64,000 bases of DNA, from the NCBI RefSeq assembly GCF_035084215.1, contig NC_090338.1, positions 9,114,001-9,178,000 on the forward strand, read 5' to 3'. Every line of letters starts with the position of its first letter. The first letter of the stretch is position 1. The notes beneath the pieces were generated by a model. It searched no databases. It was not told the origin of the DNA and saw nothing but the letters and a program-made list of their open reading frames with translations. This DNA is from Heptranchias perlo (Eukaryota). Below are positions 21,267-64,000 of the stretch, piece by piece. The position numbers and the translations under genes were made by a program.

Positions 21267-21319
21267 AGCCAATGATTTGTAGAAATGTATCAATTATTTC
21301 TTAACCGTTTTACCGTACT

Positions 21320-22740: not shown

Positions 22741-23269
22741 CAAAACTCTAGAATGTTTGCGTCTGCTATTCTTGGGAAACATTTCGAGGTACTCTTCAAT
22801 TAATTAGAAGAAGTGTTTTCTGACATGAGTTGTAAACTTGCCCTTTACTGATTCCTGTTCATGTTCTCGTGTCCTAAAGTGTGATTAATGTGAAGTTGAT
22901 CTCAAGATTAACCTTCATTATTCCACTAGGATATATTTATAATATAGTAAACTCTCATTCCTGCGCACACTTCTTATTTCAATGTTTTTTCCCCTTATAA
23001 ATTCCTACATACATATTTTTAAAACCTTTGTAAACTTATCACGCTGCAATTATACCATTTCGCCAAAGGTCACGTTTTAGTTCCTCGCTTTGCATCTCAT
23101 AGCCTGTTCTGCAGAGAGAGGTCCAAGAGCACACTACAGATCAAAGAATGTGATGGACATGGCGGAGGGAAGGCAATAAGCAGAATGGAGTTCGGCGGCC
23201 AGCTTAGCAGCACTGGAAGCAGGCAGGGAGACGAACAAATGTGGAGATTTTCCAAAGGGTAATATTTCA

Positions 23270-26970: not shown

Positions 26971-27129
26971 AAGAATTATCTTTTTGTTCACTACCTATAT
27001 TTAGAAGAGCAAAGATTGTTCAATTGGGAAGTATGTACAGACACGTCGCGTTAAATTCACTTGTATTTCATGTGCACTTCTTCAATGATACAAAAGATAT
27101 TAATTAAGAAATATAGTAGGAACATGAAT

Positions 27130-27320
27130 TAAGGTTGGACAACGTTAATTATACCAGTAATACTGAAGGTGTTCAATAGAGGCACTGTTGCATTAAGAGT
27201 ATTTGGTGCTATTATTGGTCGGGTCTCTTTGTGTCGCTGTCCACCAATGAGGTGAAGATGTTGAGCTGGAGATCCAGCACCACTCCCTCAAAACCAAACA
27301 CTGCGCAGCATCAGAGAACC
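27130..27320 (+). promoter_or_regulatory. Pcdh promoter with conserved sequence element (CGCT box at 27235-27238)
   Basis: attattggt..tctttgtgtCGCTgtccaccaatgagg..ctggagatccagcaccactccc is conserved upstream of four paralogues; the CGCT-core CSE is established for clustered Pcdh promoters. Confidence 0.85.
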
Positions 27321-27534
27321 AGCCGGACTCATTTCCACACTCTCCATTCATTCTAAAAATGGACCTTGAGAAAACTAAGGATATTTGTATAAATCTTGTT
27401 GACTATTCTCTTCAAAACAACTAGTCGTCGGACGCAAAACGTAGATCTTAATGTGGCAAATAAGGTAATGAAGAATTATGTTCTCAGTACAATACTAAAT
27501 ACCGTACAATTTATTGACTCCTATTCGTACAGAA

Positions 27535-34664: not shown

Positions 34665-36600
34665 TGGAATGTCTCCAAGTGTTTTACAGCCAATAAAGTA
34701 CTTTTGCGTGTAGTCACTGTTGTACATCCTAAAAGAGCTGGCTCCAGAGACGGTGGATGCACTGTTTATGATCTTCCAAAATGCTCTAGACTCTGGAACG
34801 GTCCCAGTGGACTGGAAGGTAGCAAATGTTACCTCGCTATTCAAGAAGGGAGGGAGAGAGAAAACAGAGAACTACAGGCCAGTTATCCCGACATTTGTCG
34901 TCGGGGAAATGCTGGAATCCATTATTAAGGAGTGGTAACAAGGTACTTAGGAAATCACAATATGATTAGGCAGAGTCAACATGGTTTTATTAAAGGGAAA
35001 TCGTGTTTGTCGAATTCAATAGAGTTTTTGAGGCTGTAACTAGCAGGGTAGATAAAGGGGAACCAGTGGATGTAGTATATTTGGATTTTCAAAGGGCATT
35101 CGATAAGGTGCCACATAAAAGGTTGTTACGCAAGGTAGGGGCTCATGGGGTTGAGGTAAATATATTAGCAGGGATAGAGCATTGGTTTAAGGGCAGAAAA
35201 CAAAGAGTAGGGATAAATGCGTCATTCTCAGGTTGGCAGGCTGTAACTAGTGTGGTGCCGCAAGGATCATGCACGGGCTTCAGTTATTTACAATGACTTA
35301 GATGAAGGGACCAATTGTAATGTATCCACGTTTGCTGATGATACAAAGCTAGGTGAGAAAGCAAGCTGTGAGGAGGACACAAAGAGCCTGCAAAGAGATA
35401 TAGACAGATTAAGTCTGTGGGCAAGAAGGTGGCAGATGGAGTATAATGTGGGGAAATGTGAGGCTATTCACTTTGGTAGGAAGAATAGAAAAACAGAATG
35501 TTTGTTAAATGGTGAGAAACTATTAAATGTTGGTGTTCAGAGAGATTTGGGTGTCCTCGTACAAGAAACACAAACAGTTAGGATGCAGGTACATTAGGCA
35601 ATTAGGAAAGCAAATGGCATGTTGGCCTTTATTGCAAGGGGGTCGGTGTACAGGAGCAAGGAAGTCTTACTCCAGTTGTACAGGGCTTTGGTGAGATCTC
35701 ACCTGGAGTACTGCGTACAGTTTTGGTCTCCTTATCTAAGGAAGGATGTATTTGCCTTGGAGGCAGTGCAACGAAGTTTCACTAGCTTAATTCCTGGGAT
35801 GAGACGGTTGTCCTATGGGGAGAGTTTGAGTAGAATGGGCCTATACTCTCTGGAGTTCAGAAGAATGAGAAGTGATCTCACTGAAACATATAAGATTATG
35901 AGGGGGCTTGCAGAGTAGATGCTGAGAGATTGTTTTCCCTGGCTAGAGTCTAGAACTAGAGGGCATAATCGTAGGATACAGGGTTTGGACATTCAAGACT
36001 GAGATGAGGAGGAATTTCTTCACGCAGGAAGTTGTAAATCTTTGGAATTCTCTACCCCAGAGGGCTGTGGATGCTGAGTCATTGAATATATTCAAGGCTG
36101 AGAGAGATAGATTTTTGGACTCTGGGGAATCAAGGGGTATGGGGATCAGGCAGGAATGTGGAGTTGAGGCCAAAGATCAGCGACGATCTGATTAAATGGT
36201 GGAGTAGGCTCAAAGGGCCGAGTGGCCTACTCCTGCTCCTATTTGTTATGTTCTTATGTTCTTATGTTATAATGTAGAGAAATGTGGCAGCCAATTTGCG
36301 CATATCAAGTTCCCACAAACAGCAATGTGATAATGATGAGATAATCTGTTTTATTGATACTGATTAAGGGAGAAATATTGGCCAGGACACGGGGGGAGAA
36401 CTCTCCTGATCTTGTCCCAATAGTGCCATGAGATCTTTTCTGTCCAGCTGAGAAGGCAGACAGAGCCTCGGTTCAGCATCTCATCTGAAAGATGGCAGCT
36501 CCAATAGTGCAGCAATCCCTCTGCACTGTATTGTGCCAGCATGGATTATGTGCTCAAGTTTCTGGAGTGTGAGGTATGAGTGCTACCACTGAGCCAAGGC
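34665..36600 (-). mobile_element. Deu-domain SINE split by a CR1 insertion
   Basis: 34665-34723 (cagccaataaagtactttt..tagtcactgttgta) continues at 36270 (aatgtagagaaatgtggcagccaatttgcgca..). Confidence 0.7.
34724..36269 (+). mobile_element. CR1 LINE, 5' truncated, frameshifted RT
   Basis: WKVANVTSLFKKG, VDVVYLDFQRAFDKVPH, FADDTKLG, HLEYCVQFWSP; tail (ttatgttc)n. Confidence 0.92.
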
Positions 36601-38030: not shown

Positions 38031-38239
38031 GATGTTTCCGCATCCAGTTAATCTTGTTTTCGTTGACGTATTCACCGTTTCATTGAAAGAAATACACAAC
38101 CTGCCACCCAAGAAAGTTGTTTAATTCAACATTTTATGCAGATGTTTCTGTTAAAATCTGTGCTAAGTTCCACATCAAATTTGTTTCATAAATAAGCCAC
38201 GAAAATGAATTGTATGACAAATAAAAGTGCAGCATCAAT

Positions 38240-38430
38240 TAAAGTTGCACAACGATAAATATGCCAAGTCATCCTAATCGTGTTTCAAAGAAGGCACCTT
38301 TGCTTTAAAAGTGCTTGTTGTTATTATTGGTTGAGTCTTTTTGTGTCGCAGTCTACCAATGAGGTGAAGAAATACGGCTAGAGATCCATCACCACTCCCC
38401 CAACACCAAACATTAAGCAGCACCCAGAAC
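38240..38430 (+). promoter_or_regulatory. Promoter of the Pcdh pseudogene; CSE core altered to CGCA
   Basis: attattggttgagtctttttgtgtCGCAgtctaccaatgagg..gagatccatcaccactccc. Confidence 0.8.
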
Positions 38431-38657
38431 CCATAGCACGCACTATTCCATATTTCCCAGTTACGTAGGAGAATAGGCGTAGGGAATTCTAAGGGGAACC
38501 GTAGAAATAATATTGGGCGATTCTAATCCTTGCAGCCTAAGTGTTGTTCTTCATCTGAAAAAGCAAGGTAATCAATAATTATCTGCTTGAAATAATACTA
38601 AATGCCGTAAATTATGGACACATCGAGCAGTTGTATTTACGGTAGTTTGGTCCCGTG

Positions 38658-41072
38658 ATGGCCGACCTGCTAAATTGCCTGATGCCACAATGGCGATTTA
38701 AAAAAAAATTATACTCCTCTGCATTTCGGTCTCAGTTTATAGAAATATTCGTTGTTCAATCTCTGAAGAATTGGAGCTTGGTGCCTTTGTTGGAAATATT
38801 TCTCAGGACCTGGACTTAGATGTAAGTCAGCTATCCACTGCGTCTGAATACAAGAAGAAGTATGTGGACGTGAACTTAAAAATGGAATATTACTCACAAA
38901 TGAAAAAATAGACAGGGAACAGCTTTTTGCGTACAGCCTCGGCTATGTGTTGCTTTTAGAGGCAGTGATATAAAATCCGCTAAAGGTAGATCGTATTGAA
39001 GTTGAGATTAGCAACATAAATGCCAACTCGCCTGTATTCGAGAGGAATGAATTTTGTTTAGGAATCTTGGAATTTGCCTCGACTGGTGAGCGTTTCCCAC
39101 AAAGAGCGCACATGAGCCGGAAGCCGGGACCAACAGAGTCCATACTTACCAGCTCAGCAAAAATGAACACTTCACTTTGGAACTACAAACGGACGGCGAA
39201 CAAACTGTGACCGCCGAGTTAGTCCTTGAACGACCTCTAGACCGGGAACATCAACCAATCCAGCAGTCAACCTTGACTGCGATTGATGGAGAAACGCCTG
39301 TGAGGTCAGGAACAACCCAGATTATTATTAGCATTTTTAAATATAAGCGACAATAAAACGATTTTCGAACAGAGCATCTATCAAATCGTCATTGCAGAAA
39401 ACCTACCAAAAGGATCTTTAGTGGTAAAGCTAAATGCCGTGGATTTGGACGGTGGACTAAATGGTGTGGTAACCTATTCTTTCAGGGAGTACACTCCAGA
39501 TAAAGTGCAGTGCCCTTTTAGTCTGGACTCCAGATCCGGAGAAATTTAAGTAACTGGCATAGTTGATTTTGAAGAGGAACAGAATTATGAGATTTTCCTA
39601 CAAGCTTAGGACAGAAGCCCAGCCGCTAAGCCAGTATACTCTAAAATTGTTAAAGGTTGCTGACAATAATGATAGCGCACCTGAAGTAAAGATAATATCC
39701 GCATCCAGTTCGATCAGAGCGCACACATTTGGGAAGCACAGTAACTCTTTTAAAAGTAACGGACCTCGAATCAGAAGAGAGGGGAAATGTTAACTGTTAC
39801 GTTGCCAGAAACAGTGCCTTTAAGCTTGATAGCTCCTTTAATAACTACCACAGTGATCACTGATGGCCACCTAGATCGTGAAAAGGTAACTGAGTACAAT
39901 ATTACCATTGTATGTTGGGATGCAGGCTCTACTCCACTCTCAACTCACAAACTCAACTCAGGTGTTAGATATAAACGATAGCGTGCCCGCTTTACGCAGT
40001 CTTAATTTACTACGTGTGTGACAGAAAATAACGATGTTGGTAAGTCTATTGGTTCGGTAACAGCATTTAATCCAGATTTGAGTCAAAATGGCCTTCTTTC
40101 TTATTCCATTCTGGACAGTCTGGTGCATGGCATGCCTGCGCCAACTTTCTTCACAATCATTTCAGCCAATGGTATGATGTTTGCGCAGCGCTCTTTTGAT
40201 TACGAGCAACTGAAAAATGTTCAAGTCTTTCTGGATATTATGGATACTGGATCCCCTCGGCTCAACAGCTACGTAACTGTGAATATGATCATCGTAGATC
40301 AGAATAAAAACGCCCCTGTGATCCTATCGCCCTTGTCAAATAGAGGTTCCGTAGCAGAGGAGACAATGCCCAGATCTGCGGATCCAGGTTACTTGGTTGC
40401 TAAGGTGACAGCGACAGATGCTGATTCTGGTCAGAACGCTAAACTTCACTACCAATTTCTACAGCCCATTGATGAAAGTCTGGGAACGGGACACATCTGG
40501 ACTATCCGCCGCTTTGGGATCATCGATTTGCTCAAAAAAACCTCGTAATTTTGGTGAGGAACAATGGAAAACCTTCACTTTCATCCACAGTCATTATCGA
40601 TTTGTCAGTGTCAGACAGTCATATAGAAACTGCACCCAATGTTTGTATGTTGGGGAACTCTGGACCATGGACACCTGATTTACGCCTTTATTTAATCATA
40701 TTTTTTCCATAATTTCGCTCGTTTTTCTCGCGGTTACTGTCATCTTTACCTTTAAGTTTCACAAAATTGCACATGGAATTAACGGTTATTTTTTGCTCTT
40801 GTGCCAAGCTATTCTGCCATATGTCCAGAGATTCACAAAAAGCTAGTATAAACCTTCCAATGCCACCACATTATACAGGCAACGAGACTCTTCCTCAAAA
40901 ATTGCGCTATGAAGTGCGCCCATCTTCAGATTCAATCATGAATGAATTAATGTATCTAAGCCTAAATGGGTCAACGGCACCCAAGATTCATATGAAGACT
41001 GGCGCATGCGTAGCTGAGGAAAATGGACACAGAACACATTCTAGGATTAACAAAACCACTGAGTTCCCTGAG
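38658..41072 (+). pseudogene. PCDH: Protocadherin variable-exon pseudogene
   Basis: Full-length homology from ATGGCC (38658) to GAG|GTGAGA (41072). Frameshift near the A9 run at 38700-38708, in-frame stops (about 38971 and 39547), small deletions. Residual ORFs 40018-40548 and 40767-41135 match the paralogues. Confidence 0.9.
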
Positions 41073-41194
41073 GTGAGATATGCCTTACGAGTTTATAGTT
41101 CTATGAGCCTATACTCCTCAATCAGTTTAAAGTGACAATGGTAATTTGTGAGCTTATTGAATTACTCCGCCTACACTGTTCAACTAAACTATAA

Positions 41195-42644: not shown

Positions 42645-43542
42645 TGTCTAAGGAGCCCTGTTCCATTTTGCTCTGCATATGATTCAAGTATAGTGAAAGC
42701 TGCAGTGTTTCCTAGCAGGAGGGATCAGTGACACTTTGGCGGTCTCTGGCTCCGGATGCAGTTAACAGTAGAGCATTAGAGATGGCCTGGGCATACTTAA
42801 TGTGCCCACCTTGTTATGTCACAGTTAAATAGATAAAATGGTACACGATTATATAAAAAAAGACAGTTGCCTAAGTTATCTCAGTGAAGAAAAGGAGATA
42901 ATCTCCGAAAGCTTGTGATTTTAAAATAAATTTGTTGGACTATAACCTGGTGTTGTAAGATTCCTTACACTGGTTATTAATAGCAGTTCAAAATGACGAA
43001 AGAAATACTTGACACCAGATATCTGACAGTTGTAGTTCACAAATGAGAAAGTGTGGATTATGTGGATTTTTGTGGGTAATTGGCTGATGATTTTACATTT
43101 TTAAGAGTATTTCTTGTTCAAGTTACAAGATACATCTCTGGGTGATTATTTTGTACTCGTCAATTCATTGTTGTTAGTGCGTGGGTTATTTCCCAATTCT
43201 GTTAATCAGTGTGAATATCAGATACTCAAAATCCTTAATCACAATATCTAAATAATACATACGGCAACAGCATAATTATTTTCTTGTTGGCCTTTTTCTT
43301 CACTGAGATAACTTAGGCAACTGTCTTTTTTTATATAATCGTGTACCATTTTATCTATTTAACTGTGACATAACAAGGTGGGCACATTAAGTATGCCCAG
43401 GCCATCTCTAATGCTCTACTGTTAACTGCATCCGGAGCCAGAGACCGCCAAAGTGTCACTGATCCCTCCTGCTAGGAAACACTGCAGCTTTCACTATACT
43501 TGAATCATATGCAGAGCAAAATGGAACAGGGCTCCTTAGACA
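42645..43542. repeat. Perfect 249-bp inverted repeat (arms 42645-42893 and 43294-43542, 400-bp spacer)
   Basis: tgtctaaggagccctg...tcagtgaagaaaa is the reverse complement of ttttcttcactga...cagggctccttagaca; no mismatch seen. Confidence 0.95.
42894..42969 (+). mobile_element. Penelope-like 3' tail (about 76 bp) inside a TSD-flanked insertion
   Basis: ggagataatctccgaaagcttgtg..aataaa..gttggactataacctggtgttgtaagattccttaca; 12-bp direct repeat ctggttattaat at 42634-42645 and 42970-42981. Confidence 0.65.
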
Positions 43543-46409: not shown

Positions 46410-46570
46410 TAAGATTGCACAACGTTAAATATTACTGCTTTAAGAAGGGTTGGTGTTATTATTGGTCGAGTCTCTTTGTGTCGCTGTCTACCAATAAGGT
46501 GAAGCAATGTGGCTGGAGATCCAGCACCACTCCCACTACACGAAACACTACGCAATATCCGAGAATGAAC
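46410..46570 (+). promoter_or_regulatory. Pcdh promoter with CSE (CGCT at 46482-46485)
   Basis: attattggtcgagtctctttgtgtCGCTgtctaccaataagg..ctggagatccagcaccactccc; 303 bp before the ATG. Confidence 0.85.
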
Positions 46571-46784
46571 AGCACATATTTTTTCACGTTCTCCGTTTAT
46601 GCCTGAGAGGGCACCTTAGGATCTAACGAAGCTTTATTTAAGTCGTCCTGTCGATTCTTAGCAAACGAACTTTGGACTTAATATAGGTCTTCATCCGGAA
46701 AAGGAAGGTAGCGAACAACTAAGCTCTGGTGTACAATTTATCGGCGTCTTTGGCAGTAATATTGGTTGCGGGCTTTGTCTAGGA

Positions 46785-49235
46785 ATGGCCTACTTACGGC
46801 AAATTCTTTATTTGATACTTGTCTACGTTTCACATTCAGTTTATGGGGACGTTCGCTATCCAATTCCTGAAGAATTGCAGGATGGTGCCTTTGTTGGAAA
46901 TATTGCTAAGGACCTGGGGCTAGATGTACGACAGCTGTCCGCTCGCAAGTTTCGGATTGTATCTGAAAATCAAAAGCAATACCTGGGCGTGAATTTTAAC
47001 AACGGAATTCTGTTCATAAATGAGAGAATAGACAGGGAACAGCTTTGCGAACAGACCCTCGCGTGTGTATTGACTTTGGAATCTGTTGTAGAATATCCTC
47101 TTAAACTGTACCGTGTTGAGGTTCAGATTCTCGACATAAATGACAATCCACCCGTATTCCAAAGAAGCGAGAATCGCTTTGAAATATCAGAAATGGCATC
47201 GCCCGGAGCGCGCTTCCCACTTCAGAGCGCGCACGACCCTGACTCCGGAACCAACAGCGTCCGCAACTATCGACTCAGCCCAAGTGAGCATTTTATTTTA
47301 GATCTACAATCAAATAGCGAGCAAATTGTCACGGCAGAGTTAGTCCTACAGCAACCCCTAGACCGAGAGCAGCAAGCCACTCATCGGTTAACATTGACAG
47401 CAATTGACGGAGGCTCCCCGACGAAATCTGGAACCTGCCAGATTATAATAATTGTATCTGATGTAAATGACAATGTACCGGTTTTCGATAAGAACGTGTA
47501 TCGAATTGTCATTGCAGAGAACGTACCGAAAGGTTCTTTGATAGCGAAAATTAATGCTACGGATTTGGACGAAGGTACAAATGGTGAGTTGATATATTCT
47601 CTCAGTGACAACACTGCCGATAGAGTACGTAAACTGTTTAGCATAGAGTCCGAAAACGGAGAGATCAGAATAAATGAAATGGTGGATTTCGAAGAAGCAC
47701 AGAATTATGAGATGACGGTGCAAGCGAAAGACAAAGGGCCTGCGGCAGTGCCCGCGTACTGTAAAGTTCTAGTAAAAATTACTGATGTTAATGATAATGC
47801 TCCCAGAATAATGTTAACTTCTGTGCACAGTTCGATACCAGAGGACGCCTCAGCAGGGACTTTAGTAGCTACTTTGAAAGTAACGGACCGTGATTCCAAA
47901 GAAAGGCAGGTTGTTCATTGTCACGTCTCCAAAAATGTCCCCTTTAAGCTTGATAGCTCTTTTACTAACTATTACACAGTGGTCACCGATGGTGACATAG
48001 ATCGTGAAACGATGCCTGAGTACAACATTACCATTACATGTACAGACACGGGCAAACCCCCGCTTTCCACTAACAAAACCATCTCAGTTCCAATTTCGGA
48101 TGTAAACGACAACGCACCACGGTTTACGCGATCTTCCTTTACTATGTACGTGACGGAAAATAATGCCATTGGTGCCTCTATTGGATTTCTATCAGCGATT
48201 GATCCAGATTTAAATCAAAATGGCCGACTGTCGTATTCCATCCTGGATAGCCTTGTTCATGGCGTGCCTGTGCCCACGTTCGTCTCAATCAATTCCGCCA
48301 GCGGCGTGATGTATGCGCACTGCTCTTTTGATTACGAACAGGTCAATAATTTTCTGGTTTCTGTGCAAGCAAAGGACGCTGGATCCCCTCCGCACAGCAG
48401 CTACGTAACTGTGAATGTGATCATCCTCGATCAGAATGATAATGCCCCTGTGATCCTATCGCCCTTGTCAAATAGAGGCTTCGTAGCAGAAGAGATAATG
48501 CCCAGATCTGCCGATCCAGGTTACTTGGTTGTTAAAGTGACAGCTACAGACGTCGATTCTGGACAGAACGCCCATCTATTTTATCAACTTCGTCAGCCCA
48601 CCGACGAAAGTTTGTTTACAATGGCATCTGGGACGGGAGAAATCTGGACCATCCGCCGCTTTGGGATGAAGGATTCGCTCAAACAGAAACTCGTTGTCGT
48701 GGTCAGAGACAATGGAAAACCTTCACTTTCATCGACAGTCAGTATCAACTTATCAGTGTTGGATATTGATAGAGAAAGTGCATCTAACGTCGCTATGTTG
48801 GGAAACTCTGGACCATGGACGCCTGATGTAAGGCGTTATTTGATCATATCTTTTGGCACAATCTCGTTCGTTTTTCTTGTGGCTATTGCAATCCTCGCCA
48901 TTAAGGTTCAGAAAGGTGCACGTGGAGATCATGGCTACTGTTGCTCCTGCGGCATGCCATTCTGCTTCAAGCGAAAAGATTCGCTGCAAGGAGTTCAAAA
49001 GACCAGTGTAAACTTTCAACTCCCAGCCAATTATACAGATGTGTACGAACGGGAGACGGTCCCTCAAACATTTCACTATGACTTATGTCCAACTTCAAAT
49101 TCACCCATGAATGACTTCATGTTTTTAAAGTTACATGGTCCAGCGGCACCCATGATTAATATCAAAACTGGCTCGTTATTAATGGAACAAAATGGAAAGG
49201 AATCCAATTGTAAGGATACCATTCAATCACACAAG
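46785..49235 (+). CDS. PCDH: Clustered protocadherin variable exon 3
   Basis: ORF 46785-49268; six cadherin repeats, TM YLIISFGTISFVFLVAIAILAI; phase-0 donor AAG|GTGAGG at 49235/49236. Confidence 0.95.
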
Positions 49236-51573: not shown

Positions 51574-54500
51574 TTTTTTTTATTCTTGCATGGGATGTGG
51601 GCGTCGCTAGCGAGGCCAGCATTTATTGCCCATCCCTAATTGCCCTTGAGAAGGTGGTGGTGAGCCGCCTTCTTCAACCGCTGCAGTCCTTGTGGTGACA
51701 GTTTTCCCACAGTGCTGTTAGGAAGGGAGTTCCAAGATTTTGACCCAGTGACGATGAACGAACGGCGATATATTTCCAAGTCGGAATATGTGTGCGACTT
51801 GGAGGGGAACGTGCAGGTGGCCTTGTTCCCAAGTACCTGCTGCTCTTGTCCTTCTAGGTGGTGGAGGTCGCGGGTTTGGAAGGTGCTGTCGAAGAAGCCT
51901 TGGCGAGTTGCTGCAGTGCATCCTGTGGATGGTACACACTGCAGCCACGATGCGCCGGTGGTGAAAGGAGTGAATGTTTAGGGTGGTGGATACGGTGCCA
52001 ATCAAGCGGGCTGCTTTGTCCTGGATTGTGTCGAGCTTCTTGAATGTTGTTGGAGCTGCACTCATCCAGGCAAGTGGAGAGTATTCCATCACACTCCTGA
52101 CTTGTGCCTTGTAGATGGTGGAAAGGCTTTGTGGAGTCAGGGGGTGAGTCACTCGCCAAAGAATACCCAGCCTCTGACCTGCTCTTGTAGCTACAGTATT
52201 TATATGGCTGGTCCAGTTAAGTTTCTGGTCAATGGTGACTCCCAGGATGTTGATGGTGGGGGATTCGGCGATGGTAATGCCATTGAATGTCAAAGGGAGG
52301 TGGTTAGACACACTCTTGTTGGAGATGGTCATTGCCTGGCACTTGTCTGGTGCGAATGTTACTTGCCACTTATGAGCCCAGGCCTGGATGTTGTCCCGGT
52401 CTTGCTGCATGCGGGCACGGACTGCTTCACCATTTGAGAGGTTGCGAATGGAATTGAACACCGTGTAATCATCAGCGAAAATCCCCATTTCTGACGTTAT
52501 GATGGAGGGAAGGTCATTGATGAAGCAGCAGAAGGTGGTTGGACCTAGGACACTGCCCTGAGAAACTCCTGCAGCAATGCCCTGGGGCTGAGATGATTGG
52601 CCTCAAAAAACCACTACCATCTTCCTTTGTGATAAGTATGACTACAGCCACTGATGATTTTTCCCCCTGATTCCAATTTACTTCAATTTTACTAGGGCTC
52701 CTTGGTGCCACACTCAGCCAAATGCTGCCTTGATGTCAAGGGCAATCACTTTCACCTCACCTCTGGAATTCAGCTCTTTTGCCCATGTTTGGACCAAGGC
52801 TGTAATGAGGTCTGGCAGCAAGTGGTCCTGGCGTAACCCAAACTGAGCAGGTTATTGGTGAGTAAGTGCCGCTTGATAGCACTGTCGATGACACCTTCCA
52901 GCACTTTGCTGATGATTGAGAGTAGATTGATGGGGCGGTAATTGGCCGGATTGGATTTGTCCTGCTTTTTGTGGACAGGACATACCTGGGCAATTTTCCA
53001 CATTGTCGGGTAGATGCCAGTGTTGTAGCTGTACTGGAACAGCTTGGCTAGAGGCGCAGCTAGTTCTGGAGCACAAGTCTTCAGCACTACAGCCGGGATG
53101 TTGTCAGGGCCCATAGCCTTTGCTGTATCCACTGCACTCAGCCGTTTCTTGATATCACGTGGAGTGAATCGAATTGGCTGAAGACTGTCTTCGGTGATGG
53201 TGGGGATATCGGGAGGAGGCCGAGATTGATCATCCACTCGGCACTTCTGGCTGAAGATGGTTGCAAACGCTTCAGCCTTGTCTTTTGCACTCACGTGCTG
53301 GACTCTGCCATCATTGAGAATGGGGATGTTTACAGAGCCTCCTCCTCCCGTTAGTTGTTTCATTGTCCACCACCAATCACGACTGCAGAGCTTTGATCTG
53401 ATCCGTTGGTTGTGGAATCGCTTAGCTCTGTCTATAGCATGTTGCTTGCGCTGTTTAGCATGCATGGAGTCCTGAGTTGTAGCTTCACCAGGTTGGCACC
53501 TCATTTTTCACTCCGCCCGGTGTTGCTCCTGGCATGCTCTTCTGCACTCCTCATTGAAACAGGGTTGATCCCCTGGCTTGTTGGTAATGTTAGAGTGAGG
53601 AATATGCCGGGCCATGAGGTTACAGATTGTGCTGGAATACAATTCTGCTGCTGCTGATGGCCCACAGCGCCTCATGGATGCCCAGTTTTGATCTGCTAGA
53701 TCTGTTCTGAATCTATCCCATTTAGCACGGTGGTAGTGCCACACGATACGTTGGATGGTGTCCTCTGTGCGAAGACGGGACTTCATCTCCACGAGGACTG
53801 TGTGGTGGTCACTCCTACCAATACTCTCATGGACAGATGCATTTGTGACAGGTAGATTGATGATCACGAGGTCAACATTTTTTTCCCTCGTATTGGTTCG
53901 CTCATCACCTGCCCCTGGCCCAGTCTGGCAGCTATGTCCTTCAGGACTCGGCCAGCTCGGTCAGCAGTGATGCGACCGAGCCTCTCTTGGTGATGGACTT
54001 TAAAGCCCCCCACCCAGAGTACATTCTTTGCTCTTTGCTACCTTCAGTGCTTCCTGCAAGTGGTGTGCAACATGGAGGAGGACTGATTCACCATCTGAGG
54101 GAGGGCGGTAGGTGGTAATCAGCAGGAGGTTTCCTTGCCAATGTTTGACCTGATGCCTTGAGATTTCATGGGGTCTGGAGTCAATGTTGAGGACTCCCAG
54201 GGCCACTCCCTCCTGACTGTACATTACTGTACTGCCACCTCTGTTGGGCCTTTCCTGCCGGTGGGACAGGACATTCCCAGGGAAGGTGATGGAGGAGTCT
54301 GGCATGTTGCCTGAAGGGCATGATTCTGTGAGTATGGCTATGTCAGGCTGTTGCTTGACTAGTCTGTGGGACTGCTCTCCTAATTTTGGCACAAGTCCCC
54401 AGATGTTAGTGAGGAGGATTTTGCAGGGTCGACTGGGCTTGGATTGTCTTTGTCGTGTCTGGTGCCTAGTGGTCCGATGCCGGGTGGTCCATCCCGTTTT

Positions 54501-54861
54501 ATTCTTATTCTGACTTTTCGTAGCAAGATTTTAAAACTGAGTGGCTTGCTAGGCCATTTCAGAGGGCGATTAAGAATCAACCACATTATTGTGGGTCTGG
54601 AGTCACTAATAATCCAGAACAGGTAAGGAAAGCAGGTTCCCTTCCCGAAAGGGGGTTAATGAACCAAATGGGTTTTTACGACAATCCGGTCGGCTCACGG
54701 ACACCATTATTGATACTAGCTTTTTTTTATTCCAGAATTTTATTTAATTAATCGAATTTAAATTCGCCAGCTGCCGTCGGAGGATTTGAACTCATAACTC
54801 TAAGATTATTAGTCCAGGTCTCTAGATTTCTAGTCTAGTAACATAAGCACTATGCTACCGT
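51574..54861 (-). mobile_element. Near full-length LINE family B (APE endonuclease + RT) with a tRNA-like 5' head
   Basis: APE motifs ILLTNIWGL, PDIAILTE, SDHHTV; RT ORFs 52770-53504 and 51718-52488 (FADD); reverse tail at 51574; A box 54847-54857 and B box 54782-54791 on the - strand. Confidence 0.9.
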
Positions 54862-55515: not shown

Positions 55516-55519
55516 CCAA

Positions 55520-58500
55520 CGCCTTTCCACCATCTTTAAGGCACAAGTCAGGAGTGTGATGGAATACTCTCCACTTGCCTGAATGAATGCAGCTCCAACA
55601 ACACTCAAGAAGCTCGACACCATCCAAGACAAAGCAACCCGCTTGATTGGCATCCAATCCACCACCCTAAACATTCACGACATTCACCACCGTTGCACTG
55701 TGGCTGCAGTGTGTACCATCCACAGGATGCACTGCAGCAACTCGCCAAGGCTTCTTCGACAGCACCTCGCAAACCCGCGACCTCTACCACCTAGAAGGAC
55801 AAGAGCAGCAGGTACGTGGCAACACCACCACCTGCACGTCCCCCTCCAAGTCACAGACCATCCCTACTTGGAAATATATCGCCGTTCCTTCATCGTCCCT
55901 GGGTCAAAATCCTGGAACTCTCTTCCTAACAGCACTGTGGGAGAACCTTCACCGTTCTCCCTCAGCTGATGAATCAGTCCTCCTCCATGTTGAGCACCAC
56001 TTGGAGGAAGCACTGAGGGTAGCAAGGGCACAAAACGTACTCTAGGTGGGGGACTTCAATGTCCATCACCAAGAGTGGCTCGGTAGCACCACTACTGATC
56101 GAACTGGCCGAATCCTGAAGGACATAGCTGCCAGACTGGGCCTGCGGCAGGTGGTGAGCGAATGAACATGAGGGAAAAACTTACTTGCCCTCGTCCTCAC
56201 CAATCTACCTGTCGCAAATGCATCTGTCGATGACAGTATTGGTAGGAGTGACCACCGCACAGTCCTCGTGGAGACGAAGTCCCGTCTTCGCACTGAGGAC
56301 ACCATCCAATGTGTTGTGTGGCACTACCACCATGCTAAATGGGATAGATTCAGAACAGATCTAGCAGCTCAAAACTGGGCATCCATGAGGCGATGTGGGC
56401 CATCAGCAGCAGCAGCAGAATTGTATTCCAGCACAATCTGTAATCTCATGGTCTGGCATATTCCTCACTCTAACATTACCAACAAGACAGGGGATCAACA
56501 CTGGGTCAATGAGGAGTGTAGAAGAGCATGCCAGGAGCAGCACCAGGCGTATCTAAAAATGAGGTGCCAACCTCGTGAAGCTACAACTCAGGACTACATG
56601 CATGCTAAACAGAGGAAGCAACATGCTATAGGCAGAGCTAAGCGATTCCACAACCAACGGATCAGATCAAAGCTCTGCAGTCCTGCCACATCCAGTCGTG
56701 AATGGTGGTGGACAATTAAACAACTAACGGGAGGAGGATGTTCTGCAAACATCCTCATCCTCAATGATGGCAGATTCCAGCACGTGAGTGCAAAAGACGA
56801 GGCTGAAGCGTTTGCAACCATCTTCAGCCAGAAGTGCCGAGTGGATGATCCATCTCGGCCTCCTCCCGATCTCCCCACCATCACAGAAGCCAGTCTTCAG
56901 CCAATTCGATTCACTCCATGTGATATCAAGAAACGGCTGAGTGCACTGGATGCAGTAAAGGCTAGGGGCCCCGACACCATCCCAGCTCTAGTGCTGAAGA
57001 CTTGTGCTCCAGAACTAGCTGCGCCTCTAGCCAAGCTGCTCCAGTGCAGCTACAACAATGGCATCGACCCGACAATGTGGAAAATTGCCCAGGTATGTCC
57101 TGTCCACATAAAGCAGGACAAATCCGATCCAGCCAATTACTGCCCCATCAGTCTACTCTCAATCATCAGCAAAGTGATGGTAGGTGTCATCGACAGTGCT
57201 ATCAAGCGGCACCTACTCACCAATAACCTGCTCAGCGATACTCAGTTTGTGTTCCGCCAGGACCACTCGATTCGAGACCTCATTACAGCCTTTGTCCAAA
57301 CATGGACAAAAGAACTGAATTCCAGAGGTGAGGTGACCGAGTGTGGCACCAAGAAGCCCGAGTAAAATTGAAGTCAATGGGAATCAGGGGGAAAAATCTC
57401 CAGTCGCTGGAGTCATACCTAGCACAAAGGAAGATGTTAGTGGTTGTTGGAGGCCAATCATCTCAGCCCCAGGGCATTGCTGTAGAAGTTCCTCAGGGCA
57501 GTGTCCTAGGCCCAATCATATTCAGCTGCTTCATCAATGACCTTCCCTCCATCATAAGGTCAGAAATGGGGATGTTCTCTGATGATTGCACAGTGTTCAG
57601 TTCCATTCGCAACTCCTCAAATAATAAAACAGTCCGAGCCCGCATGCAGCAAGACCTGGACAACATCCAGGCTTGGGCTCATAAGTGGCAAGTAACATTC
57701 GTGCCAGACAAGTGCCAGGCAATAACCATCTCCAGAAAGAAAGAGTCTAACCACCTCCCCTTGACATTCAACGGCATTACCATCACCGAATCCCCCACCA
57801 TCAACATCCTGGGGGTCACCATTGACCAGAAACTTAACTGGACCAGCCATATAAATACTGTGGCTACGAGAGCAGGTCAGAGGCTGGGTATTCTGTGGCG
57901 AGTGACTCACCTCCTGACTCCCCAAAGCCTTTCCACCATCTACAAGGCACAAGTCAGGAGTGTGATGGAATACTCTCCACTTGCTTGGACGAGTGCAGCT
58001 CCAACAACACTCAAGAATCTCGACACCATCCAAGATAAAGCAGCCCTCTTGATTGGCACCGAATCCACCACTCTAAACATTCACTCCCTTCAGCACCGGT
58101 GCACAGTGGCTGCAGTGTGTACCATCCACAGGATGCACTGCAGCAACTCGCCAAGGCTTCTTCGACAGCACCTCCCAAACCCGCGACCTCTACCACCTAG
58201 AAGGACAAGAGCAGCAGGTACATGGAAACAACACCACCTGCACATTCCCCTCCAAGTCACACACCATCCCGACTTGGAAATATATCGCTGTTCCTTCATC
58301 GTCGCTGGGTCAAAATCCTGGAACTCCCTTCCTAACAGCACTGTGGGAGAACCGTCATCACACGGACTGCAGCGGTTCAAGAAGGCGGCTCACCACCACC
58401 TTCTCAAGGGCAATTAGGGATGGGCAATAAATGCCGGCCTCGCCAGCGACGCCCACATCCCACGAACGAATAAAAAAAAAACATGGACTGCAGCGGTTCA

Positions 58501-58602
58501 AGAAGGCGGCTCACCACCTCCTTCTCAGGGGCAATTAGGGATGGGCAATAAATGCTGGCCTCGCCATCGACGCCCACATCCCATGAATGAATGAAAAAAA
58601 AA
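55520..58602 (+). mobile_element. Rearranged LINE family B: 3' fragment (55520-55953) + long copy (55956-58481) + duplicated tail (58482-58602)
   Basis: ORFs 56268-57365 and 57341-58417 (VPQGSVLGP, FSDD); short internal deletion near 57337; two poly-A tails. Confidence 0.92.
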
Positions 58603-59354
58603 TCAATGTCTCATTTATTAATAGTTAAATCAAACATGTAGAGTTGTCAAATATTAGAAGGCGGTAATAATACAACGTTTTAAACAATATAACCCCGTTA
58701 TTAGAAGACAGTAATAATACAGATATTAAAATGAAATTACCCCGATTGATCTCAGGACAGAGTTTGTAATATATTGGTGGCATAGTCATTTCGAGTTGTT
58801 TTCTGACAGGCTGATAATCTTCTCACAGTCTGGTCGATGTCTAACATCTTGTTCGATTTTTGTTGCAGAGGTTGTAATCTTCTGCATCTGGATGTTCTTC
58901 GCTGATTCCTCTGCACCAAGCTAAAAATGATGTCAGGTTTTTAAAGCCCGCTGGAAGGAATCTTAGGACATTTATGGGGTAGCTATTCATAAAAACCCTT
59001 ATAGAAATACAAGGGATTTTTTCCACAATACAACGTGACCAGATTGCACAAGACTCTTTGCAAGGTGTTTTTTTTTTACTAAATTCAAGATAACCAGTCG
59101 TCCTTTAATTGCTGTTCCACTTTTCCTGGGTCATTGTTCCTCTATAAATCATATAGTGCATAGTGTTCTTGCCACATACTGGGAATGACAAGATTCAGTC
59201 ATTAGTCAACGGTCTGTATTACAATTCAGCAAAACAGGTCAAAGGTCGGTATTTTACAATTCAGCAAATTAAACAGACACAGCCTGCAGAGCATGTTAGT
59301 TAATAGCATTAACAAAAAATGTCAATTTGTCCCTATTCCCAAAATTCTTATGGA

Positions 59355-61635
59355 TAGTACATACTGCAGCCACAGTATGTCCATGGTGGCTGGGGTGGTT
59401 GTTTATAGAAACATAATAAATAGGAGCAGGAGTAGGCCATTTGGCCCTGCTCCACCATTCAATATGATCATTGCTGATCCTCTGTCTCAATACCATATTC
59501 CTGCTCTCACTTCCTTCTGTGTCTAGAAATCTGTCTCCTTCTTAAATATATTCAGTGACTTGGCTTCCACAGCCTTCTGTGGTAGAGAATTCCACAGGTT
59601 CACCACCCTCTGAGTGACGAAATTTCTCCTCATCTCAATCTTAAATGTCCTACCCCGTATCCTGAGACTGTACCCCCTCATTCTAGACCCACCCCCCAGC
59701 TTGGGGGAACATCCTCCCTGCATTCAGTCTGTCTAGCCCTGTCAGAACTTTATACGTTTCAAAGAGATCCCCTCTCATTCTTCTAAACTCTAGTGAATAC
59801 AGGCCTAGTTGACCAATCTCTCCTCATACGACGATCCTGCCATCCCAGGAATCAGTATGGTGAATCTTCGCTGCACTCCCTCTATGGCAAGCATAGCCTT
59901 TCTTAGGTAAGGAGAACAAAACTACACACAATACTCCAGCTGTCGTCTTACCAAGGCCCTGTATAACTGCAGTAAGACGGGGTGCCATTTTAGTGGAATG
60001 TTTTTTTCCAGGATGGTGTCGACCTTCTTGAGTTTTATTACAGCTGCACCCATCCAGGAAAGTGGAGACTATTCCATCACACTACTGTGATGCGGTAGGC
60101 AATGGAAATGCTTTGGAAAGTCAGGAGGTGAACCATTTGCCCGCAGAATACCTAGCCTCTGCCGTGCTTTAGCAGTCACAGCATTTATCTGGTTGGTACA
60201 GTTGAGATACTGGTCAATAGTGAACAGCAAAATGTTGATGACGGGGGAATCGGCGATCATAATGCCATTGAATGCCAAGGCGTTAGGAGGGGGATTATAC
60301 TCCCTCTTGTTAGAGATGGTCGTTGCCTAGCACTTGTGTGGTGTAAATGCCACATGCCACTTATAAGTGCAAACCTGGATGTTGTTCAGGTCTTTCTTCA
60401 CGTGGGCATGTTCTGCTTCATTGTCTGAGGAATTGTGAATTGAGCAGAACACTGTGCAATAATCAGCAAACATCTCCACCTCTGACATTATGATGGAGGG
60501 AAAGTATGATAATGGAGCCTTCTCCGCTAGTTTGTTTCATAATTGTCCACTGCCATTCACCACATGATGTTGTAGTGTAGCACAGCTTTGGCCCGATCCA
60601 TTGGTTGTGGGATTGCTTAGCTCTTTCTACAGCACGCTGCATTCAAAGTTTAGTATGCATGTAGTTCTGTGTTGTAGCTTCGCTCGGTTGGCACCTCATT
60701 GTCAGGTATGCCTGACGCTGCACCTCTATGGTTCATTGAACGAGGATTGTTCATCTTGCCTGGTGGTGATGGAGGAGTGTGAGATATGCCGGCCTTTGAG
60801 GTTACATACAGATTGTGGTTTATACAATCCTGCTACTGCTGCCGATTGCTCACAGCGCCTCATAGATGCTCTGTTTTGAGCTGCTAGAGCTGATCTTAAT
60901 CTGTCTCACTTAGCACGGCGGTAGTGAGAATCCCTACGTGGTCAGTTTTTGGTAAAATATTAAGATGCCTATGTGGCAAAGAAGCAGAATGCAAAATGAT
61001 TAGAAAGGGTTAATTAGTTAGTAACTGAGATCGGTACAGGTGGCCTAGCCTCCTGCTGGGCCATATGTTTGCGTAGTCAGCAGGGTTGCATGGTCTTAGC
61101 AATGTAGAGTCTTTGATGTGATTCAAGGACTGGTCTGAATGTCTCCATGTTTATGGCAGATCAATATAGGTAACGAGCTTAGCCAAAGTTGAAAGACATT
61201 CCAGGTTGGGAGATAAGGAACAGAAGGGACAGGGAAGAACATTCCAAGTTGGAAGGTGAGGAAGTATCCCCTTTGATGTCTAACAGCAGCATGATCAGCA
61301 CATGGACGATCTATGATTGGCCGGCAATAATGTAACCTCGCATGGCAACCTGTGCCCGGCTTATGATTGGTGTTGACCCTCGTTAAGTATGTTCCAACCC
61401 TATTGATTTGTGTAAAAACGTGTGGATTTCTGTATGTTTTTGTTCTTGCTCTGCCAGCATAGAGGGACTCTATCAGGAGTCCAAATCAATGCTGCAGACT
61501 AAGAACCCTGCTATTAAAGATGTGTTGAACTTTAAAATGTATTCGACTTCAGTTTTTACTGAACCAGACTGAGGGGAAAGAATCCGGATCGTCAGTAGTG
61601 CCACACGACATGATGGAGGGTGTCCTCGTTGTGAA
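59355..61635 (-). mobile_element. Degenerate LINE family B with a nested CR1 (59405-59980) and a solo LTR
   Basis: Family B similarity at 59355-59400, 60010-60924 and 61595-61630; CR1 minus ORF 59523-59723 (FVTQRVVNLWNSLP). Confidence 0.75.
60925..61594 (+). mobile_element. Solo LTR (670 bp) with 4-bp TSD
   Basis: TG..CA termini (tgagaatcc / ggatcgtca), GTAG duplicated at 60921-60924 and 61595-61598, ATTAAA near 61513; splits the host LINE sequence gtag|tgccacacg. Confidence 0.75.
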
Positions 61636-62604
61636 TTTGACTATTTTTTTCTGCTTTTACTGAGCGTACACTTAACCAGTGCGAGAGATCATGCAGTTAA
61701 TTATCAATGGTCAGGAATGAAACACGGAGCCCAAAGAAAAAGGATAATGTTTTAAGCCCATCGTCAAGTTGATCTCTGATGTGCCTGTTGGTCTAAAACT
61801 CGTCAATTTGGATAGTTATTACTGTATGAATCCATAGATAGAAAAACATAAGGTGATTAGTTTGTCCTAATTTATTTGTGCAATGTTTTGTATCTCGATA
61901 TCTGAGTTCTTTTTATGACAGATGTGGAATGTTCAAAGCTCTCAGAATGCTAATCCTTTTTGGAGCTACTGAAGGCAAGGCAACGAGACTTTCTCCGGTC
62001 CAGGGTTATCCCAAGTTTTAATACATAACCCGTTAAAATAACATACTTTTATTCTTAACCAACATCCTAGAATTGCCCTGAACATCACACACACAGGCTG
62101 TGCACTTTCCTCAGGTTCAGGAGTTTTACATTACAGGAGTTGTAGATGGCAATTGTTGATACAGGGCAGAACAATGAACGGCGGTAGCATATAACGAACA
62201 TGCACTAAAAATGCTGTTACAAAATCCACACCTTCCTAACGCACATAGTAGAACAAAACCAATTCATTCTATTTGATGGCAGTGGATCAGGTGTACAACA
62301 GGTTTGGCAAATATTTTACTTACTGTCGCTACGTATACAGAAGGGCAATTGTGTGGTTTAATTGAAAACATTCTACAATTTAAAAAAAACTAGCGAAGCA
62401 TCCCGCAAATACACCGGTTAACCAAGTGGATGATTTAATATGCCTGTTTTTTATTTATCTAAAGTTTGACGAGAACGTTTTACTATGAATGCCATGAGTT
62501 AGGTTGTTTTTAGATGGTGTGAAGATATGACTAATATATATCAAGCATAATTCATCAATAAAGCAAAACGTTAAATAATACACGAAATGTGAGGGCATGT
62601 GTTT

Positions 62605-62790
62605 TAAGATTGCACAACATTAAATCCATCAAATCATCCTACTAGGGTCCAGTATAGGATGACTGCTTTAAGAGTGTTTGGTGCTATTATTGGTTGAGTC
62701 TCTTTGTGTCGCTGTCTACCAATGAGGAGATGAAATGTGGCAATAGATCCAACACCACTCCCATGAAACGAAACACTGCGCAGCACTGGA
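62605..62790 (+). promoter_or_regulatory. Pcdh promoter with CSE (CGCT at 62710-62713)
   Basis: attattggttgagtctctttgtgtCGCTgtctaccaatgagg..agatccaacaccactccc. Confidence 0.85.
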
Positions 62791-63032
62791 GAACAAACAA
62801 CGTTCATTGCTCCGTGTCCTCCATTTACGTCTTAGAGTGGCCTTGAGGCATTTTAAGACGATTTTTATAAAGAGTCCTGGCGATTCTAACCAAAACAATT
62901 CACCAGTGCACAGAACGGAGCGTTTGATCTCGAAACGCAAGGTAATAAACAATTGTGTTCTTCAAATAATACGAACTGTGATCAGAATTATCGTTCTATC
63001 CGACAACCGTTTTTTACTGTTCTCCTTCAGAA

Positions 63033-64000
63033 ATGGCCGATTTCATTAATTACCGGTTGTCAAAATGGCAAGTTCTTTGTGGAATACTTGTGTACATTTC
63101 GGATTCAATTTGCGGGGACATTCGCTACTCCATCCCCGAAGAATTAGAGCGTGGCGCCTTTGTTGGGAACATTGCTCGGGATTTGGGATTAGATCTGGCA
63201 CAGCTCGCGGCTCGCAGATTTCGGATTGTATCTGAACGCAAAGTGAAATACCTGGACGTGAGTTTCAAAACAGGAACATTGGTCATAAGTGAGAAAACAG
63301 ACAGAGAACAGCTTTGCCAACAAGCCCTGAAATGTTTAATGAGGTTGCAGGCCGTGGTTGAAAATCCGGTCAAGCTGTATCGTGTTGAAATTGAGATTAC
63401 TGATATAAATGACAATTCGCCCGTATTCGATAGAAGTGAATTCCGCTTAAATATCTCAGAAATGACGTCGCCCGGAGCGCGCTTCATGCTCCAGAACGCG
63501 CATGACCCGGACGCCGGGACCAACAGTGTCCGCACCTATCAACTCAGCCACAGTGAACACTTCGTTTTGGATCTACAATCAGATATGGAGCAAAGCCACA
63601 CACCCGAGCTGGTCCTTGAGCAACCACTCGACAGAGAACAGCGACCTTCTCATCGGTTAACGCTGACGGCGATTGATGGAGGAACCCCTCGCAGAACCGG
63701 AACCACACAAATTATCATCACCGTCATTGACGGGAACGATAATACGCCGGTTTTCGAACATGATGTCTATGAGATCACAATTGCAGAAGACGTACCGATA
63801 GGTGTTTTGATGTTGACGGTAAAAGCCATTGATGTGGACGAAGGCCTAAATGGTGAGGTGTTCTATTCTTTCAGTGACCGTACCCCCGATAGTCTACGTA
63901 AGGTATTCAGTGTGAATTCTGAAAGCGGAGAAATAAGAGTAATTGGTAACCTGGATTACGAAGAAACGCAAGATTATCACATTTCTGTACAAGCTAAGGA
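63033..64000 (+). CDS. PCDH: Clustered protocadherin variable exon 5 (partial, runs off the window)
   Basis: Hand translation from ATG 63033: MADFINYRLSKWQVLCGILVYISDSICGDIRYSIPEELERGAFVGNIARDLGLD..., open to the window end through EC1-EC3; absent from the ORF track because there is no stop. Confidence 0.92.
   Translation, partial: MADFINYRLSKWQVLCGILVYISDSICGDIRYSIPEELERGAFVGNIARDLGLDLAQLAARRFRIVSERKVKYLDVSFKTGTLVISEKTDREQLCQQALKCLMRLQAVVENPVKLYRVEIEITDINDNSPVFDRSEFRLNISEMTSPGARFMLQNAHDPDAGTNSVRTYQLSHSEHFVLDLQSDMEQSHTPELVLEQPLDREQRPSHRLTLTAIDGGTPRRTGTTQIIITVIDGNDNTPVFEHDVYEITIAEDVPIGVLMLTVKAIDVDEGLNGEVFYSFSDRTPDSLRKVFSVNSESGEIRVIGNLDYEETQDYHISVQAK

Follow-up and report, generated by a model that had tools for sequence, protein, structure and literature searches.

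The 64,000-nucleotide window analyzed in this study (Heptranchias perlo, contig NC_090338.1, positions 9,114,001 to 9,178,000) contains, at 54861-51574 on the minus strand, a decayed copy of an abundant 3.3-kb long interspersed element (LINE) with one open reading frame (ORF) for an endonuclease and a reverse transcriptase (RT). Searches with this copy in focus, conducted in the 3.25-Gb genome that holds the window, revealed an abundant and recently active family in which a coding LINE carries the promoter of a short interspersed element (SINE). Judging from the sequence features described below, the most likely mechanism, to which we attach modest confidence, would be the production of a transcript through RNA polymerase III (Pol III) combined with cap- and AUG-independent initiation from a structured leader. 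A first-pass annotation, made from the letters of the window alone, had proposed an autonomous, Pol III-transcribed and non-canonically translated retrotransposon at this position; its observation as a whole was confirmed, and its interpretation as a whole is partly supported.

The tRNA-derived head and the open reading frame

The window copy lacks the first four nucleotides (nt) of the family (GGGT) and aligns end to end with the natural copy L059 at 91.6% identity, the frame of the latter being open over 973 codons. As already noted in the first-pass annotation, the 5′ region contains an A box (54857-54847; TAGCATAGTGC in the window copy, TAGCATAGTGG in the family), which starts 8 nt past the family 5′ edge, and an exactly matching Pol III B box (54791-54782; GTTCAAATCC). 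Between them lie two anticodon-arm-like repeats, one at 54838-54822 with a triplet that reads AGT in the family and is presumably of the Thr type, and a duplicate at 54817-54800, which is missing from about 9 of 80 young heads and from some short derivatives. The endonuclease sequence KILLTNIWGL begins at 54425, about 360 nt past the B box, and the absence of an ORF1 and of an in-frame ATG held as well. The remnant of the single ORF (54530-51636) consists of a basic N-terminal stretch of 35 amino acids (aa), the APE-type endonuclease starting at 54425, the RT with its FADD motif at 52479-52468 and a TAG stop at 51638-51636, and is interrupted by stops and indels near 54032, 53875, 53385, 52845, and 51789. 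It is followed by a short 3′ untranslated region and A tail (51635-51574) with no T-run terminator and, as stated before, no target-site duplication. The closest named protein is from Heptranchias perlo itself, with 80% identity across 27% of the query.

A query consisting of the head and the ORF start listed 39 other places, each reaching at least base 551 of 562 and 37 of them starting at base 9 or earlier; in all 39 of these best matches the head was joined to the ORF, and 27 were contiguous across 3.3 kb. When only the endonuclease was used, 29 other loci were obtained, two of which repeat loci of the former query; 13 extended to the head, 16 ended at scattered points, and no alternative shared 5′ sequence was found among the 29. 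Distinct copies that have flank and extend as far as the endonuclease number 149, a set enriched by head-bearing queries; 103 of them align to bases 1-15, and no alternative 5′ form occurs. A chance fusion with a SINE, the possibility against which the first-pass annotation had cautioned, is ruled out by the presence of the head in other full-length copies. The 5′ edge is sharp in 77 heads, in which the eight letters next to the A box read GGGTACGG or close to it and those farther upstream are random, and it coincides with the expected start site of a type 2 Pol III promoter. The same kind of head and the same ORF start are found in an older subfamily with 77-84% identity to the young one, and both subfamilies have preserved exact A and B boxes, although the spacing between them varies.

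The Rfam tRNA model aligns with the D, anticodon, and T arms of the head at 15-24 bits, compared to a cut-off of 29, and ARAGORN called no tRNA within the window or in 22 related non-shark loci. Since there was no such call and the Rfam score stays under the threshold, the head is considered to be tRNA-derived but not a tRNA gene; its anticodon arm is duplicated in most copies. The family thereby possesses the tRNA-derived 5′ head with A and B boxes of a SINE2 element, while it is neither short nor non-coding nor non-autonomous, the element being 3.3 kb long with a 973-codon ORF under selection. At the same time, it shows the 5′-truncated copies, the A tail and the lack of long terminal repeats of APE-type LINEs. 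Target-site duplications were limited to one clear 20-bp case in 28 full-length copies (copy L040), with nothing systematic; short or absent duplications are usual for CR1/L2-group elements. The 20-bp sequence of L040 recurs again downstream of that copy.

Within the ORF, Exo_endo_phos, Exo_endo_phos_2, and RVT_1 were found above the Pfam cut-off with visible catalytic motifs, and the Protein Data Bank matches of its protein were L1 ORF2p and R2. A genome search with an RT profile, which is blind to the 5′ end, yielded nine further copies with 972-973 open codons that were confirmed on the sequence, and at least 10 copies in the genome keep this frame. Non-CpG changes shared by at least 8% of copies were counted in 191 distinct segments and amounted to 14 of 5997 possible non-synonymous versus 37 of 1942 synonymous ones (ratio 0.12), with rare variants in the same segments being near neutral (0.38 versus 0.44). 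The 973-codon ORF has hence been under purifying selection along lineages that all bear the head, and the autonomy claimed for the element is supported by both the intact frames and this selection.

Within the CR1 group, the element represents an autonomous LINE with a single ORF. In an RT tree, its protein is placed with compact ORFs of 940-1000 aa (33-40% identity), including lancelet and moth (Loxostege) proteins; using FastTree, it falls among 27 such ORFs with weak node support. This grouping is compatible with the CR1-Zenon lineage as a candidate label, and both a single ORF and internal-deletion derivatives, as known from CR1-Zenon-type elements, are present. The basic N-terminal stretch resembles in length the Met-to-endonuclease stretch of the relatives. 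It does not contain an NPGP motif, and Vingi/Ingi elements with a 2A peptide, which had been considered as candidates, were set aside. Neither a metagenome scan with the single ORF protein nor an alignment scan of viral contigs returned relatives of the element. It was also observed that many prokaryotic metagenome-assembled genomes (MAGs) carry intact animal LINE ORFs (L260-L339), representing host contamination.

Scarcity of T runs

Four or more T residues (T4+) terminate vertebrate Pol III, and Pol III RNAs are uncapped. Runs of four T (T4) are absent from 19 of 27 full-length copies of the family, and the 53 runs present in 434,692 nt of the 191 segments each occur in no more than 4.4% of copies, except for six in the A tail. 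The commonest letters of the family contain seven TTT and zero T4, so that the consensus is free of the T4 runs that the first-pass annotation had considered damaging to its proposal. In agreement with that annotation, the T4+ runs of the window copy at 52610 and 52481 are private, and the plus-strand copy at 55956-58480 has zero T4 and exactly four TTT; the third T4+ run of the window copy (54536), for which the annotation had no sister copy to compare, is private as well, being found in 1 of 99 copies. The CR1 element at 34724-36269 indeed contains six T4+ runs, but the contrast drawn between these two is confounded, since CR1 has a T content of 0.264 compared to 0.203.

Shuffling the bases of the whole L059 element gave a probability of 0.013 for zero T4 and of 0.0003 for no more than seven runs of three or more T (T3+). 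Upon permutation of synonymous codons in the L059 ORF, six T3+ runs compare with 12.6 expected (P = 0.0065), and runs of A, C, and G correspond to expectation, the depletion thus being T-specific. Codon usage, the other explanation that had been anticipated, therefore accounts for part of the T4 absence but not for the T3 depletion. Among 119 LINE ORFs with a length of 1500 nt or more, L059 shows the lowest observed/expected T3+ ratio (0.47), the other 118 lying at 0.98 ± 0.10 with 0.75 as the next lowest value; 33 of 151 comparison ORFs were shorter and excluded, three of them having no T4. Seven ORFs from about two other LINE families of the same genome, which we take to be Tx1/L1-like, contain 2-12 T4 at a T content of 0.19-0.21 and show T3+ ratios of 0.93-1.37, and one CR1 ORF of this genome has five T4. 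A further control from the same genome (L344; T3+ 2 versus 12.7, T4 0 versus 0.5) was excluded, as most of its open frame consists of a TTC-rich repeat. L180, L260, and L307, which are the nearest among the non-shark relatives that have a 5′ region, show an ATG start, no such head, and 7-10 T4 per kb.

The absence of internal T4, a further SINE2 trait, applies to the young family, with the old subfamily being an exception at one site. In the 3′ tails, T4+ precedes the A run in 17 of 126 cases (e.g., L385, L388, and L389), the usual form being TA.... Taken as a sequence-based prediction, transcription of the family by Pol III is probable.

The AUG-less start and the structured leader

The AUG start of APE-type LINEs is missing from this family. 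The first Met of the intact copies is located near residue 250, past the endonuclease, apart from one copy with a private Met at 123. In 95 of 98 copies, one or two stops block the sole upstream in-frame ATG, which lies 27 nt ahead of the frame, and an in-frame TAA (54533-54531) shuts the upstream reading frame in most young copies. Coding constraint begins approximately at an in-frame GCT (54524-54522), two codons past the beginning of the open frame; beyond this point, recurrent indels measure 3 or 15 nt, compared to 1, 2, or 18 nt upstream of it. Young copies also contain an overlapping frame that opens with an AUG and extends over about 76 codons, as well as an AUG-GCC-stop that is in frame. 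Common changes past GCT are mostly silent in the ORF frame and non-synonymous in this overlapping frame, and both upstream AUGs are altered in about one third of the old copies (ACG in 8 of 24, GTG in 9 of 24). The near-cognate candidate ACG after GCT reads ACA or AAA in many copies as well as in the old subfamily. A non-AUG start of the ORF is very probable. The non-canonical translation suggested previously is supported by the coding constraint from GCU onward with no usable AUG, and a leader was identified as a candidate element for it. Translation of AUG-less LINE ORFs is treated as an open question in the literature (PMC3894237).

A structured leader of about 165 nt (54687-54522) that ends with this GCT represents a candidate site of internal ribosome entry (IRES). 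The first 449 nt fold better than shuffled sequences (z -4.4), and two compensatory changes were identified. A long irregular hairpin (54668-54596) is closed by U-A in the young subfamily and by A-U in the old one (20 old copies). In an inner hairpin with a CUGCC loop (54646-54622), one pair reads A-U in 97 of the 132 young copies and G-C in 25 of them. A leader model of 38 pairs was 91.5% paired over 56 copies and gave 24 double-change cells versus 10.8 in shuffles; as the number of pairs with a double change (4 versus 4.4) matches the shuffles, support from covariation consists of the two compensatory events only. Independent of this model, it was noticed by eye that the inner hairpin loop contains CUGCCG (L043:536-541), the complement of CGGCAG at the end of the tRNA head (L043:397-402).

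The last hairpin of the leader (54562-54537) resembles an anticodon stem-loop. Its 7-nt loop, CUAGCAA, follows the pattern of tRNA anticodon loops, and the AGC in it (54550-54548) is complementary to the in-frame GCT, which is the predicted start point of translation. Each position of AGC is conserved in at least 128 of 132 young and at least 22 of 24 old copies, the adjoining base being variable, and 9 of the 24 old copies have an additional G-C pair in the stem. In both subfamilies, GCT follows 12 nt after the stem, with spacer letters that differ between them. In shuffled sequences, such a hairpin together with a complementary triplet appears at a rate of 2.8e-5 per position, a value obtained with a pattern set after the data had been seen. 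Single-sequence folding assigned the anticodon-like stem probabilities of 0.61-0.76 in five of five young copies and of 0.96, 0.04, and 0.0 in three old ones. The C-G pair of AGC:GCU is broken in 21 of 56 cells, mostly by G to A after C, as would be expected from CpG decay after insertion. A candidate PKII-type pairing, AGGG:CCCU, competes with the covarying hairpin. The same applies to a second anticodon-like loop, UUAGGGA (about 54650-54640), pairing with CCCU (54566-54563), which is also out of frame and was rejected, as was a long-range pairing of GGAUUG with the spacer that is inconsistent across subfamilies or in the wrong frame. Searching viral contigs for the 15-nt hairpin motif yielded 48 matches, none with wider similarity; the leader had nothing convincing in 29 contaminated MAGs, where the best match (E 0.002) covered 31 nt of A-rich sequence, and neither leader nor tail was similar to any of 160 non-shark LINE loci.

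The arrangement recalls the type 6 (dicistrovirus intergenic-region, IGR) IRESs, structured RNAs of 120-215 nt directly ahead of an AUG-less ORF (PMC10275262; PMC12221177; PMC13273307). In domain 3 of these IRESs, the pairing of an anticodon stem-loop with a codon is imitated, and translation starts without AUG, mostly at GCU and in subtype 6f at ACA (PMC10275262; PMC12221177). The shark leader shares with them the place directly ahead of an AUG-less ORF, the anticodon-like hairpin at its end, the A-rich variable spacer, and GCU/ACA codons, and differs in belonging to a retrotransposon instead of a virus. It may act like a type 6 IRES but is not classed as one, because the viral family is defined by nested pseudoknots and by loop motifs, for which the shark leader offers a competing candidate pairing and no exact match, respectively. 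The tRNA-mimic detail of leader-driven initiation is put forward tentatively, as a proposal about which some doubt is in order.

Proposed mechanism, related elements, and implications

In the proposed mechanism, Pol III would start at the G located 8 nt ahead of the A box, read through 3.3 kb free of T4, and end in a SINE-like manner at the first T run of the flanking sequence. The uncapped RNA would load a ribosome via the leader, with the AGC loop pairing to GCU as a mimic of tRNA and codon, and elongation would begin at or just past GCU. The resulting protein would bind the 3′ tail of its own RNA and insert this RNA by target-primed reverse transcription, and internal deletions would yield ready-made SINEs that retain head, leader, and tail. 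A Pol II transcript would presumably be endangered by two AATAAA within the first 365 nt of the sense strand (L059 positions 120 and 359; about 54735 and 54503 in the window). Internal oligo-T has been used to exclude Pol III transcription for another family (PMC4494074). That the retrotransposon bypasses both Pol II and the cap/AUG machinery, with a Pol III-made 3.3-kb mRNA and a factor-independent dicistrovirus-type IRES starting at GCU, is conceivable but doubtful.

Several observations weigh against this mechanism. The absence of T4 from the L059 ORF (0 versus 2.0 expected by synonymous codon permutation) is not significant with P = 0.09, and the T4-creating variants among source elements, at 0 of 244 sites versus about 1.3 expected, provide too little power to show selection against them. 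A closer non-shark relative (L261:34-2892), which has an ATG, lacks its 5′ end with almost no upstream sequence, and is a contaminant in a bacterial MAG, is T-poor and contains one T4 in 2859 nt, which indicates that T-poor LINEs can have few T4 by composition. Segments of the old subfamily are less depleted (21 T4 versus 54.6 expected in 27.5 kb), and about 30 nt past the B box, T4+ is found in 6 of 16 old copies of the coding type and in 7 of the 15 others, a split made by motif that is wrong for about three copies; since T/A junctions mutate readily, these runs may or may not date from the source element. With regard to the leader, two of the three singly folded old copies lose the anticodon-like hairpin, and RNAalifold missed it in 56 decayed copies and proposed rival pairs. 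The AGC:GCU pairing comprises 3 bp with no compensatory change, the third base of GCU is variable (G in 7 of 132), and the base at the U33 position is free. Rfam returned no IRES match at E ≤ 10, and the L1.1a/L1.1b, SLIV, and SLV motifs had no exact match at the expected places, the CUGCC loop being nearest; several viral type 6 subtypes likewise do not have these motifs (PMC10275262). Furthermore, most viral type 6 IRESs decode GCU as the first codon after the pseudoknot, with GCU outside it (PMC12221177; PMC10275262), whereas GCU would be the paired codon here.

The P value of 0.09 for the absence of T4 and the T4+ site in part of the old subfamily would also be at home with a different explanation, in which the head is a SINE-derived passenger, a capped Pol II transcript originates from a promoter within the leader, ribosomes scan to a near-cognate codon, and T scarcity is due to composition or to some other constraint. 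That LINEs are generally viewed as Pol II transcripts (PMC5786205) adds to its appeal. A passenger would nevertheless hardly be expected to retain exact A and B boxes in two subfamilies despite their variable spacing, or to have its 5′ edge at the position expected for the start of a type 2 Pol III transcript; the depletion is T-specific and absent in the same-genome controls, and the near-cognate ACG is preceded by several AUGs and in many copies reads ACA or AAA, as it also does in the old subfamily. Altogether, this explanation is considered unlikely.

Two further alternatives concern the origin of the protein. The overlapping AUG frame and the in-frame AUG-GCC-stop of the young copies would allow a start at an upstream AUG, from which the ORF is entered by frameshift, read-through, or re-initiation in the absence of any tRNA-mimic IRES. 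This appears quite improbable in view of common changes that alter the overlapping frame and leave the main frame silent, of the change of both AUGs in roughly a third of the old copies, and of the one or two stops that follow the in-frame AUG in nearly all copies. It is also conceivable that Pol III makes the transposing RNA but that this RNA is never translated, the protein being supplied in trans by Pol II read-through copies or by an AUG-bearing master. Uncapped Pol III RNAs are in general poorly translated, and the family is very abundant and sits inside gene regions such as this window. Nonetheless, the ORF is under purifying selection in lineages that all have the head, no other 5′ form was encountered in the 149 copies, and a host transcript would still be devoid of an in-frame AUG, which renders a supply in trans very improbable. 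Pol III transcription with initiation from the leader is thus retained as the working model.

Among described elements, the family is comparable to CR1-Zenon LINEs and the internally deleted Persaeus, with which it shares a compact single APE-RT ORF, an A tail, and many internal-deletion derivatives (PMC6740152); CR1-Zenon-like LINEs are also annotated in the whale shark (10.1101/443036). In contrast to the shark element, Persaeus and Zenon are stated in that source to have neither tRNA homology nor a Pol III promoter (PMC6740152), and the relatives examined here start with ATG and are T4-rich. Short derivatives consisting of a tRNA head, a LINE 5′ part, and a LINE 3′ tail resemble the bipartite SINEs of the pairs Bov-tA/Bov-B and SINE2-1_ACar/Vingi-2_ACar (PMC5786205; PMC4494074). 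As far as these reports describe it, however, the head of Bov-tA and SINE2-1_ACar was added to a non-coding derivative of a headless coding LINE, while here the coding element itself is headed. The shark SINEs SacSINE1, with its Deu domain, and HE1/HER1 are likewise tRNA-headed with LINE-type tails (PMC5499810; PMC3747384), but according to their descriptions they do not code for protein and have an L2-2_CM or HER1 tail; this comparison was made by description, and the short derivatives may already be named. SINEs are characterized as unable to encode protein (Kojima 2018). Neither a tRNA-headed coding LINE nor an IGR-type IRES in a retrotransposon was found in the accessible literature, with Repbase, Dfam, and subscription journals lying outside the search, so that a family entry may exist. 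The combination of a tRNA-type promoter on a coding LINE with a putatively tRNA-mimicking leader of the kind so far described in viruses was not found in these sources either.

Short elements composed of head, leader, and 3′ tail are common, as 92 exact matches to the junction pattern were obtained compared to none for a control pattern, with many different junctions. The family and joints of leader and tail also occur in assembled contigs of four organisms, which give neither strand nor start nor level. The short forms arise through many independent deletions. The window itself holds a 5′-truncated sister copy with zero T4 at 55950-58480 (+), another at 13098-15256 (-), and two head-to-head 3′ fragments at 6746-8266 (6746-7424 on the minus and 7425-8266 on the plus strand). 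Two fragments of the same lineage are older and more decayed, a 3′ fragment at 21317-22745 (+; 74-81%) and one at 59976-60926 (-), and queries with the old window fragments mostly return the young family. In the plus-strand sister copy, the 3′ end is tandemly duplicated (about 122 bp, 58360-58604), and a further 3′ fragment lies immediately before this copy (55516-55953).

Apart from this family, the window contains large single exons at 27123-30006 and 46436-49172 (+) as well as at 38233-41081, 1278-3182, and 62604-64000, with 836 and 837 open codons in two and another one broken; from their translation, these read like clustered protocadherins. A 249-bp inverted repeat has 100% identical arms that are 400 bp apart (42645-42893 and 43294-43542). 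Elsewhere in the genome, another LINE family with intact frames of 1296-1326 codons (L407-L409, L414) forms clusters with a spacing of about 7 kb on C38, C725, C1626, C424, and C13 (73.36 Mb), which suggests a target-specific or tandem element.

The division between coding LINEs made by Pol II and non-coding SINEs made by Pol III underlies the classification of retrotransposons, and the family described here bears both on this division and on the translation of AUG-less LINE ORFs. It is directly testable, as it offers two promoter boxes that can be mutated, a prediction for the terminator, and a leader of 165 nt for which one codon-anticodon pairing is predicted. If the proposed mechanism is true, a long Pol III RNA can be a natural mRNA in a vertebrate, and factor-free initiation would extend beyond viruses to a chromosomal vertebrate instance of such an IRES. 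The element would then be a protein-coding "autonomous SINE" and the parent of deletion derivatives that are born as complete SINEs; these may retain the leader for ribosome docking, which would provide a functional origin for conserved SINE bodies. A compact element of 3.3 kb would also be of interest for expression and gene-insertion tools. Should Pol III transcription and the IRES both hold, the family represents a credible route to something categorically new.

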